Below, piece after piece: positions 23,935 to 24,378 of a stretch of 64,000 bases of DNA (the first letter of the stretch is position 1; each line of letters opens with the position of its first letter). Both the position numbers and the translations under genes were made by a program. The DNA comes from Shigella phage SF1-1. The notes beneath the pieces are model-generated. The model did not search any database. It was not told the origin of the DNA and saw only the letters and a program-made list of their open reading frames with translations. The stretch lies in sequence record PQ571307; one strand, given 5' to 3'.

Positions 23935-24378
23935 ATGCAAAACATCCAAAACATCAAACTGACTTGGCCCGAAGCTAAAGAAGCAATGAAGGAAGGTAGA
24001 CGTGTTGAGCACCGCCATTTTTGTGGTGGCGAATGGTTTGAGATGCGAGATGGTGTTATTCTCGACGAACAAGGTTATAATATGGAAACTTGGTTCAGAG
24101 GGGAAGCTTGGCAGGAAGAGGGTTGGTCTGTAATTGAAAAAGAAGACAGTAAGGAAGAAGGCGTGTTGTCTAATGTAGAACGCAAGATGAGGGAAACAAA
24201 GATACCTGCTTTGGATTTTGTATACCTGGAAGAACTTGTGGCAGCATCTTTTGTAGCAGGAAACCTTTGGAATACACCTGTTAGCCGACTGGAGAACCAA
24301 AATAACCCGTCTGCTCGTAATCACAAGCTTTATAAGGGTAAAGGTCACAACAAATTAAAGAAAGGAAAGAAGAAATGA
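23935..24378 (+). CDS. hypothetical protein with DUF2829-like N-terminal domain and Lys-rich tail
   Basis: 147 aa; N-terminal KLTWPEAKEAMKEGRRVEHRHF...DG resembles the F.EAL.A.K.GK.V.R..W pattern I recall for DUF2829; from memory, unverified. Confidence 0.45.
   Translation: MQNIQNIKLTWPEAKEAMKEGRRVEHRHFCGGEWFEMRDGVILDEQGYNMETWFRGEAWQEEGWSVIEKEDSKEEGVLSNVERKMRETKIPALDFVYLEELVAASFVAGNLWNTPVSRLENQNNPSARNHKLYKGKGHNKLKKGKKK

Follow-up and report, generated by a model that had tools for sequence, protein, structure and literature searches.

A predicted minimal Tad2-fold domain at the N terminus of a small Phapecoctavirus protein

We analyzed the gene at positions 23,935–24,378 of a 64,000-nucleotide stretch of DNA from Shigella phage SF1-1 (sequence record PQ571307; the whole stretch is called the window below) and found the N-terminal ~60–65 residues of its 147-residue product to be a predicted minimal and divergent representative of the Tad2 (DUF2829) fold superfamily. 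Tad2 itself forms tetramers that act as a sponge for 1''-3' glycocyclic ADP-ribose (gcADPR), and its homologues bind cGG and cyclic GMP–AMP (cGAMP) via an insertion, and also His-ADPR, cCMP/cUMP and N7-cADPR. A sequence-only reading of the same DNA had proposed, on the basis of an N-terminal motif and the position of the gene, that the protein is a Tad2-like antagonist of Thoeris defense. The Tad2-like identity stands in part: the protein is a remote relative sharing the Tad2 fold but lies outside the Tad2 family by Pfam and motif criteria. Tentatively, we favor an accessory protein of early infection in which the minimal Tad2-fold domain forms oligomers and takes up a small ligand in a rebuilt pocket, countering a signaling-type defense with a specificity unlike that of canonical Tad2.

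Remote homology of the N-terminal domain to Tad2

The protein belongs to two uncharacterized PHROG families, both without annotation. Phrog_22208 matched it over residues 1–147 (E 2.8e-102) and is the Phapecoctavirus-type long form carrying a basic tail, and phrog_3474 matched the N-terminal domain (N-domain) over residues 7–68 (E 5.1e-30) and is a short family of ~62 residues, here called the mini-Tad2 family. A search for the Pfam family DUF2829 had been proposed as a check on the Tad2-like call, and it came back empty: PF11195 (gathering cut-off 25 bits) matched neither the full protein nor the N-domain even at E ≤ 10, and a direct Pfam scan of the 147-residue protein gave no match. When the family members were scanned singly, 16 of 62 had sub-threshold matches to PF11195 (best E 0.0028). 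The top sequence matches of the family profile in the Protein Data Bank (PDB) were SptTad2, ModTad2 and the Tad2 entry 8v3e, all nonsignificant at E 0.16–0.95. In a direct PDB sequence search, a relationship to CutA was rejected as a chance match (E 0.08) with neither fold nor profile support.

For profile–profile comparison, we aligned 12 Tad2 sequences from Supplementary Table 12 of Yirmiya et al. (bioRxiv 10.1101/2023.05.01.538930), five of them experimentally verified; the SPO1 Tad2 sequence used is 100% identical to PDB 8sme. Comparing the family with this set, hhalign reported a probability of 85.6% for the untrimmed alignment and of 93% for the domain-trimmed one (E 3.5e-7, score 36.9), with E ranging from 3.5e-7 to 5.6e-6 over the alignments. 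The scores of 100 column-shuffled controls were 10.4 ± 2.2 with a maximum of 19.6, and the reversed profile scored 11.1. The confident part of the alignment comprises helix α1, β1 and β2, and the significant segment spans 23–37 columns. The motif KLTWPEAKEAMKEGRRVEHRHF, on which the Tad2-like call had been based, is present at residues 8–29, and it is this same segment that bears the similarity supported against the shuffled controls.

Bridging sequences connect the families. The representative P0095, a tandem of two ~60-residue mini-domains, scored E 2e-7 against the family profile in a database of 5.8 billion sequences; it is the sole member to pass the PF11195 cut-off, with 40.3 bits, and it matches both phrog_3474 and phrog_1048, the main Tad2 PHROG. 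A further family, phrog_2709, matched the window protein at E 1e-4 and the full length of SPO1 Tad2 at E 9e-10. Because the hhalign score stands out from its controls and these sequences bridge the two groups, we consider the similarity of KLTWPEAKEAMKEGRRVEHRHF to reflect real, remote homology to Tad2. A relatives search with SPO1 Tad2 as the query returned SPO1 alone.

The structure prediction agrees with the profile comparison. The modeled N-domain consists of a helix at residues 11–19, strands at 24–26, 35–38 and 41–44, a short helix at 58–61 and a strand at 64–66. A different fold had been named as one of the observations that would overturn the Tad2-like call, and the predicted fold is the same as that of Tad2, with individual Foldseek E-values of 0.19–1.2 against the PDB. 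Compared with Tad2 proteins of PF11195 (SPO1 gp34.65; HgmTad2, which is AcrIIA7; ModTad2; SptTad2), whose core has ~85–105 residues, the core here is reduced to ~60.

As a side observation, Lactobacillus phage Semele has three 117-residue paralogues of Tad2-like fold (BFVD A0A2K9VD73, A0A2K9VD58 and A0A2K9VDB9), and further Herelleviridae matches in BFVD carry Tad2-like labels. Multicopy arrays of Tad2-fold proteins may exist in Gram-positive phages.

Family distribution, fusions and the C-terminal half

An exhaustive HMMER search recovered 65 representative clusters matching approximately residues 8–68 only, and a word-indexed homologue search with the N-domain alone gave 2 matches. By tblastn, the N-domain was found in 478 phage records, chiefly of Klebsiella, Escherichia and Salmonella phages and belonging to several unrelated lineages. 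As more than half of the clusters are bare domains (≤75 residues in 35 of 63 representative clusters), the mini-Tad2 domain must work alone. The T5-like phage saus132 (NC_047884 7432–7629; L003 3501–3698) has a stand-alone homologue of 65 residues in its left terminal repeat, in the pre-early first-step-transfer region and 3' of a gene for a T5.015-like endonuclease nicking apurinic/apyrimidinic sites. The first-step-transfer region of T5 is the first DNA to enter the cell and is associated with host-takeover functions. Elsewhere, homologues are found in clusters of small accessory genes: among the small genes from nrdH to gene 55 in T4-like phages, between DNA polymerase and ligase in a FelixO1-like phage, and also in Chaseviridae and Vequintavirinae (rV5-like).

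The N-domain is joined to at least three different C-terminal modules, among them the tail module of the window protein and phrog_11295. In the sister genus Justusliebigvirus, gp097 of phage alia (183 residues; L008 815–1366) combines phrog_3474 with phrog_11295, and the same is seen in SD2 (L007 787–1368); phage arall has a protein of equal size, 183 residues, at the same position, and phi92 has a homologue of the partner domain, gp217. The ~110-residue phrog_11295 domain of alia gp097 is 61% identical over 112 residues (E 5e-51) to the product of a stand-alone gene of the window, located 1.2 kb from the 147-residue gene and within the divergent block. Since the two parts are fused in alia-type phages and separate in the window, the pattern suggests a functional link of the Rosetta-stone kind between the mini-Tad2 domain and this product. 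For the phrog_11295 partner, which is nearly restricted to Stephanstirmvirinae, no relative was found in Pfam or the PDB.

Sponge domains are reported to be often fused to further sponge domains or modules. As in the fused multi-sponges Tad2–Acb4 and Tad2–Sequestin (Tal et al. 2025, PMC12265669), a Tad2-type domain is here accompanied by a second small module, and the partner module, here phrog_11295, is also a stand-alone gene in related phages. Unlike in those fusions, none of the partners found here (phrog_11295; the DFxxLE helix with the KGKGHNKL tail) is Acb4 (PF13876), Sequestin (PF21825) or another Pfam family. Both Sequestin and Acb4 were also considered as the C-terminal half of the window protein and rejected, with no Pfam match in residues 70–147.

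Two further kinds of variants are informative about the domain. Natural tandem duplications of the ~60-residue mini-domain, P0048 (175 residues) and P0095 (130 residues), hint at a functional unit that is at least dimeric. In phage PD114 (L006 814–993) and in the representative P0015, an internal deletion has removed β3 and the E45–Y48 loop, and these decayed copies suggest that the gene is dispensable and sometimes lost. Decayed copies in some Justusliebigvirus and phAPEC8-like genomes also show G21→D and the loss of W64, and the PD114 copy additionally has a premature stop.

The C-terminal half of the window protein (residues 69–147) was modeled at low confidence. No Pfam family matched residues 70–147 at E ≤ 0.1, and the C-terminal profile had no PDB sequence relative at E ≤ 10. 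The linker following the N-domain varies in length and sequence among the relatives. In the helix motif beyond it, the D, L and E are invariant among 10 aligned C-terminal modules, including those of the diverged members P0025, P0030, P0043 and P0047; across the diverged members the motif reads D-[FYM]-x-x-L-E (residues 94–99), and AlphaFold2 (AF2) places a helix at residues 95–107 with low confidence.

The protein ends in a strongly basic segment, with a net charge of +9 over residues 129–147. The pattern G-[KR]-G-H-N-[KR]-L...KKK is near-invariant in the 24 proteins collected, four of which have unrelated linkers and represent other clusters at 50% identity, and across P0025, P0030, P0043 and P0047 the tail reads K-G-[KR]-G-H-N-[KR]-L-[QK]-K-x-K-K-K. 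A scan of viral contigs with a degenerate DNA pattern for the tail motif found it in one contig. The A-rich codons of the tail also hold the Shine–Dalgarno sequence of the next gene, and constraint at the nucleotide level could therefore account for part of the tail conservation. Separately, phrog_27594 matched residues 129–147 weakly (E 0.009).

A candidate ligand site and competing explanations

The residues conserved in the mini-Tad2 family are H26, F29, E33, E45, G47, Y48, W53, G63 and W64, and the family consensus reads MTxxEAxxAMxxGKKVxHxxFxxxExxxMxxGxIxDExGYxxxxWxxxxxxxWxxxGWxI. Five of the near-invariant residues, H26, E33, E45, G47 and Y48, are peculiar to this family; the topology of the model would put them within the pocket-forming loops, at the sheet end that holds the pocket in Tad2. 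For the 147-residue protein we infer early timing, oligomerization, ligand binding and an anti-defense role, which could be combined as follows. The N-domain would self-associate and bind a small ligand at the sheet end equivalent to the gcADPR/His-ADPR pocket of Tad2, rebuilt from different residues: H26, F29 and E33 in or around the β1–β2 loop, E45, G47 and Y48 after β3, W53, and G63–W64. Sequestration of the ligand would blunt a signaling-type host defense with a specificity unlike that of canonical Tad2. The Phapecoctavirus-type C-terminal extension, that is, the DFxxLE helix and the KGKGHNKL...KKK tail, would be a lineage-specific add-on that may serve to oligomerize the protein, to anchor it on a polyanion (nucleic acid or membrane, for example), or both.

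Several observations, in addition to the empty PF11195 search, weigh against this reading. In the end-to-end profile alignment, the mini-Tad2 family has a ~24-residue gap at the β2–β3 insertion of Tad2, and the model has a tight D39–G40 hairpin in its place. This insertion bears helix α2, which forms the V-shaped dimer of Tad2, and with that interface deleted the tetramer may not form; in long-insertion homologues the insertion forms the pocket for cyclic dinucleotides (CDN) or cUMP. The gcADPR ligand of Tad2 is contacted by W25, N26, W73, S76, T78 and D79, and through water by D67 and H71, and gcADPR binding was markedly reduced in the HgmTad2 mutants W21A/N22A and S90A/T92A/D93A. SPO1 N26 corresponds to C30 of the window protein, a position that is not conserved in the family (T/S/C), and S76, T78 and D79 have no conserved equivalent; the residue mapping is of low confidence past the first ~37 columns of the profile alignment. 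The G-W-N-G motif of the β1–β2 loop is absent, the window protein reading H28-F29-C30-G31 and the family [HY]-F-x-x with the aromatic alone retained, and the C-terminal Tad2 motif W-x-x-S-x-T-D-x-L-A-E-D-W was not found in the family by profile alignment. As the gcADPR site is reportedly retained by ~99% of canonical Tad2 proteins, its loss is a real departure, and both known Tad2 ligand sites are compromised in the 147-residue protein. In descriptions of sponge pockets, a positive charge is nearly universal, whereas the N-domain has a net charge of −6 (family mean −3.8; Tad2 set −0.8), with the conserved polar residues of the family being acidic or histidine. The neighbors of the gene and of its homologues are small genes of unknown function, with no recognizable anti-defense gene or island signature among them, and in the literature the family is not mentioned by identifier and no published data on any member were found. 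Signature fragments of the mini-Tad2 family were also absent from the covered part of the original Tad2 homologue tables.

The same observations bear on a second explanation, according to which the Tad2-like fold has been reused for something other than a sponge. The acidic N-domain would then be a protein-binding or oligomerization module acting directly on a host protein, by inhibition or redirection, and in the long forms the variable C-terminal modules would matter, for instance through a basic tail binding nucleic acid, the ribosome or the membrane. The loss of the canonical ligand residues together with the insertion, the pairing of an acidic domain with a strongly basic tail where sponge pockets are almost always positive, the better conservation of the tail and the DFxxLE helix than of the linker across diverged members, the pairing of the N-domain with at least three C-terminal modules and the lack of signaling-related neighbors would all fit such a role. 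However, more than half of the representative clusters consist of the bare ~62-residue domain, and the conserved loop histidine, the two glutamates and the aromatics sit at the position of the Tad2 ligand and resemble a small-molecule site over a large protein interface; moreover, no fusion or neighbor points to a target. We regard this explanation, the main rival, as possible but somewhat doubtful.

Taken literally, the sequence-only reading makes the protein a canonical Tad2, which would block type I Thoeris as a tetramer sequestering gcADPR (3'cADPR). In its favor are the shared fold, a remote but real homology and the early-operon position of the gene. The three aromatics that pack against the ligand or core are also retained: SPO1 W25 corresponds to F29 (F in 60 of 62 members), W73 to W53 (W or F in 52 of 62) and W85 to W64, the D84–W85 pair aligning, with low confidence at this point, to G63–W64 (G in 55 and W in 60 of 62). 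Among the 12 Tad2 sequences, G24-W25-N26-G27, S76, D79 and D84-W85 are invariant, yet G24, N26, G27, S76, D79 and D84 are not conserved in the mini-Tad2 family; PF11195 does not match and the deletion takes the dimer-forming helix α2. A literal anti-Thoeris Tad2 is quite improbable, since the protein lacks the equivalents of the HgmTad2 residues on which gcADPR binding depended in mutagenesis.

We consider it very improbable that the protein is a small enzyme or metal-binding protein, in which a site of H26, E33 and E45 would cleave or modify a signal or metabolite with an outcome like that of Acb1, Apyc1 or Acb5. A histidine and two carboxylates are indeed the most conserved polar residues and cluster, by topology, at one sheet edge, and enzymes destroying signals are known among phage anti-defense proteins; against this, a 60-residue Tad2-fold domain has no precedent as an enzyme, no hydrolase similarity was found in PDB or Pfam, and the spatial clustering of the three residues is itself deduced from topology. 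Finally, a convergent or trivial resemblance without any relation to Tad2, for which one could cite the ease with which small α+β folds are matched by chance, the high Foldseek E-values, the sub-threshold Pfam and PDB sequence matches and the shortness of the significant hhalign segment, is barely credible given the hhalign controls and the bridging sequences.

Among the known sponge families (Tad1, Tad2, Acb2, Acb4, Sequestin, Lockin and TadIV-1), the 147-residue protein resembles Tad2 only. The other sponges and Atd1 are comparable in the role presumed here, as small early phage proteins that neutralize signaling defenses, but have no kinship to it in fold or sequence. TadIV-1 (T4 vs.3), Sequestin (T4 Y16Q) and Lockin were ruled out by fold and description; Sequestin and TadIV-1 have helical structures and Lockin forms a β-rich hexamer. 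The anti-TIR protein Atd1, reported as specific to Phapecoctavirus and Justusliebigvirus, was rejected as the identity of the protein, being a MazG-like pyrophosphatase encoded by a different gene.

The favored reading of a ligand-sequestering accessory protein can be carried further. The mini-Tad2 family (phrog_3474) might represent a distinct sponge lineage, with a pocket of H26/F29/E33/E45/Y48/W53/W64 capturing a signal that canonical Tad2 misses and with fusion partners, phrog_11295 and the DFxxLE helix with the KGKGHNKL...KKK tail, that are further anti-defense modules; we consider this stronger proposal unlikely. If it were true, the captured signal could be one not yet identified in Enterobacteria, and the family would be usable as bait for finding both the signal and its defense system. 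Sponge proteins have repeatedly opened the way to new bacterial immune signals, and the Tad2 fold has already been retargeted to at least five ligand classes (3'cADPR, His-ADPR, N7-cADPR, cCMP/cUMP and cGG). A widespread reduced branch of Tad2 that keeps the fold while both known ligand sites are replaced would offer a concrete and cheap experimental lead, and the family sits in coliphages related to laboratory models (T5-, T4-, rV5- and phAPEC8/phi92-like), some of which are used in phage therapy. Binding of a known signal would define a minimal Tad2 pharmacophore and binding of a new ligand would indicate an unrecognized defense pathway, while the absence of any binding would indicate that the fold had been taken over for a different early function. 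As regards annotation, the label "DUF2829-like" on these short proteins should not be equated with "anti-Thoeris".

Gene, promoter and genomic setting

The window comes from a phAPEC8-like myovirus (Phapecoctavirus, Stephanstirmvirinae), and the 3 kb surrounding the gene are 97–99% identical to phAPEC8, nepoznato, ESCO5 and dozens more E. coli phages. Near-identical proteins (98%) are present in phAPEC8-like phages, and conservation at the protein level extends over more than 100 phage genomes, supporting the coding status of the gene. Its stop codon and the start codon of the small gene that follows overlap (ATGA at 24375), and the ribosome-binding site is kept in the alignment of relatives. 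No paralogue or canonical Tad2 was found elsewhere in the window. The coordinates of the features are collected in Table 1.

Table 1. Features of the 147-residue gene, its product and its surroundings (window coordinates; residue numbers refer to the 147-residue protein; pLDDT, predicted local distance difference test)
Feature	Position	Strand	Basis or remark
Coding sequence, 147 residues + stop	23935..24378	+	Open reading frame list; phrog_22208 full-length match
Ribosome-binding site AAGGAG	23922..23927	+	7 nt 5' of ATG; sequence read directly
Sigma-70-type promoter-like site, TTGACA-16 nt-TAAGAT, TG upstream	23877..23904	+	Consensus scan
Divergent intergenic region, 114 bp	23821..23934		Contains promoter-like site
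Predicted minimal Tad2-fold domain, residues 8–68	23956..24138	+	Profile alignment and model
Acidic/charged linker, residues 69–92	24139..24210	+	Alignments; pLDDT ~47–57
Helix motif D-F-x-x-L-E-x-L-V-A-A-S-F, residues 94–106	24214..24252	+	Alignment; AF2
Basic tail KGKGHNKLKKGKKK, K-G-K-G-H-N-K-L-K-K-G-K-K-K, residues 134–147	24334..24375	+	Alignment
Stand-alone 118-residue gene, phrog_11295	22346..22702	-	Homologue fused to minimal Tad2 domain in phi92/alia-type phages

The gene is the first plus-strand gene beyond the divergent intergenic region. The promoter-like site within that region scored 10/12 in the consensus scan and has an extended −10 element, and the authors of phage ASO2A annotated a promoter at the equivalent site. 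The intergenic region with the promoter is conserved in 124 phage records, and the −35 hexamer with its flank is invariant in the window, PD114, SD2 and alia, among which the region has diverged to ~75% identity. The gene had been described as the first of an early operon, and its place as the first gene after a promoter-like site agrees with this; "early", however, is what we infer from the host-type promoter alone.

The leftward neighbors, 23227..23514 (−) and 23527..23820 (−), code for proteins of the families Phage_tudor (PF24144) and DUF7325 (PF24011). In the T4-like Klebsiella phage pKp20, the stop codon of the mini-Tad2 homologue overlaps the start codon of a Phage_tudor gene directly 3' of it (L004 4177–4419). 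A general linkage between mini-Tad2 genes and Phage_tudor was nevertheless rejected, as the pairing is seen in the window subfamily and one Jiaodavirus and is absent from four other lineages.

Five records labeled as Campylobacter phages (host label C. jejuni; including MG065650 B15 and MG065639 A150) have ~99% protein identity to the E. coli phAPEC8/phi92-type region; probably the host is mislabeled in them, or lysates had been mixed. Farther downstream in the window, a GC-rich stem-loop, ACCCTAACCCCGAAGGGT, is found at 25300..25345, with its T-run on the minus strand and the flanking genes on the plus strand. A −35-like hexamer, TTGACT, lies on the plus strand just 5' of this stem-loop, and in ASO2A a rho-independent terminator is annotated at the equivalent place.
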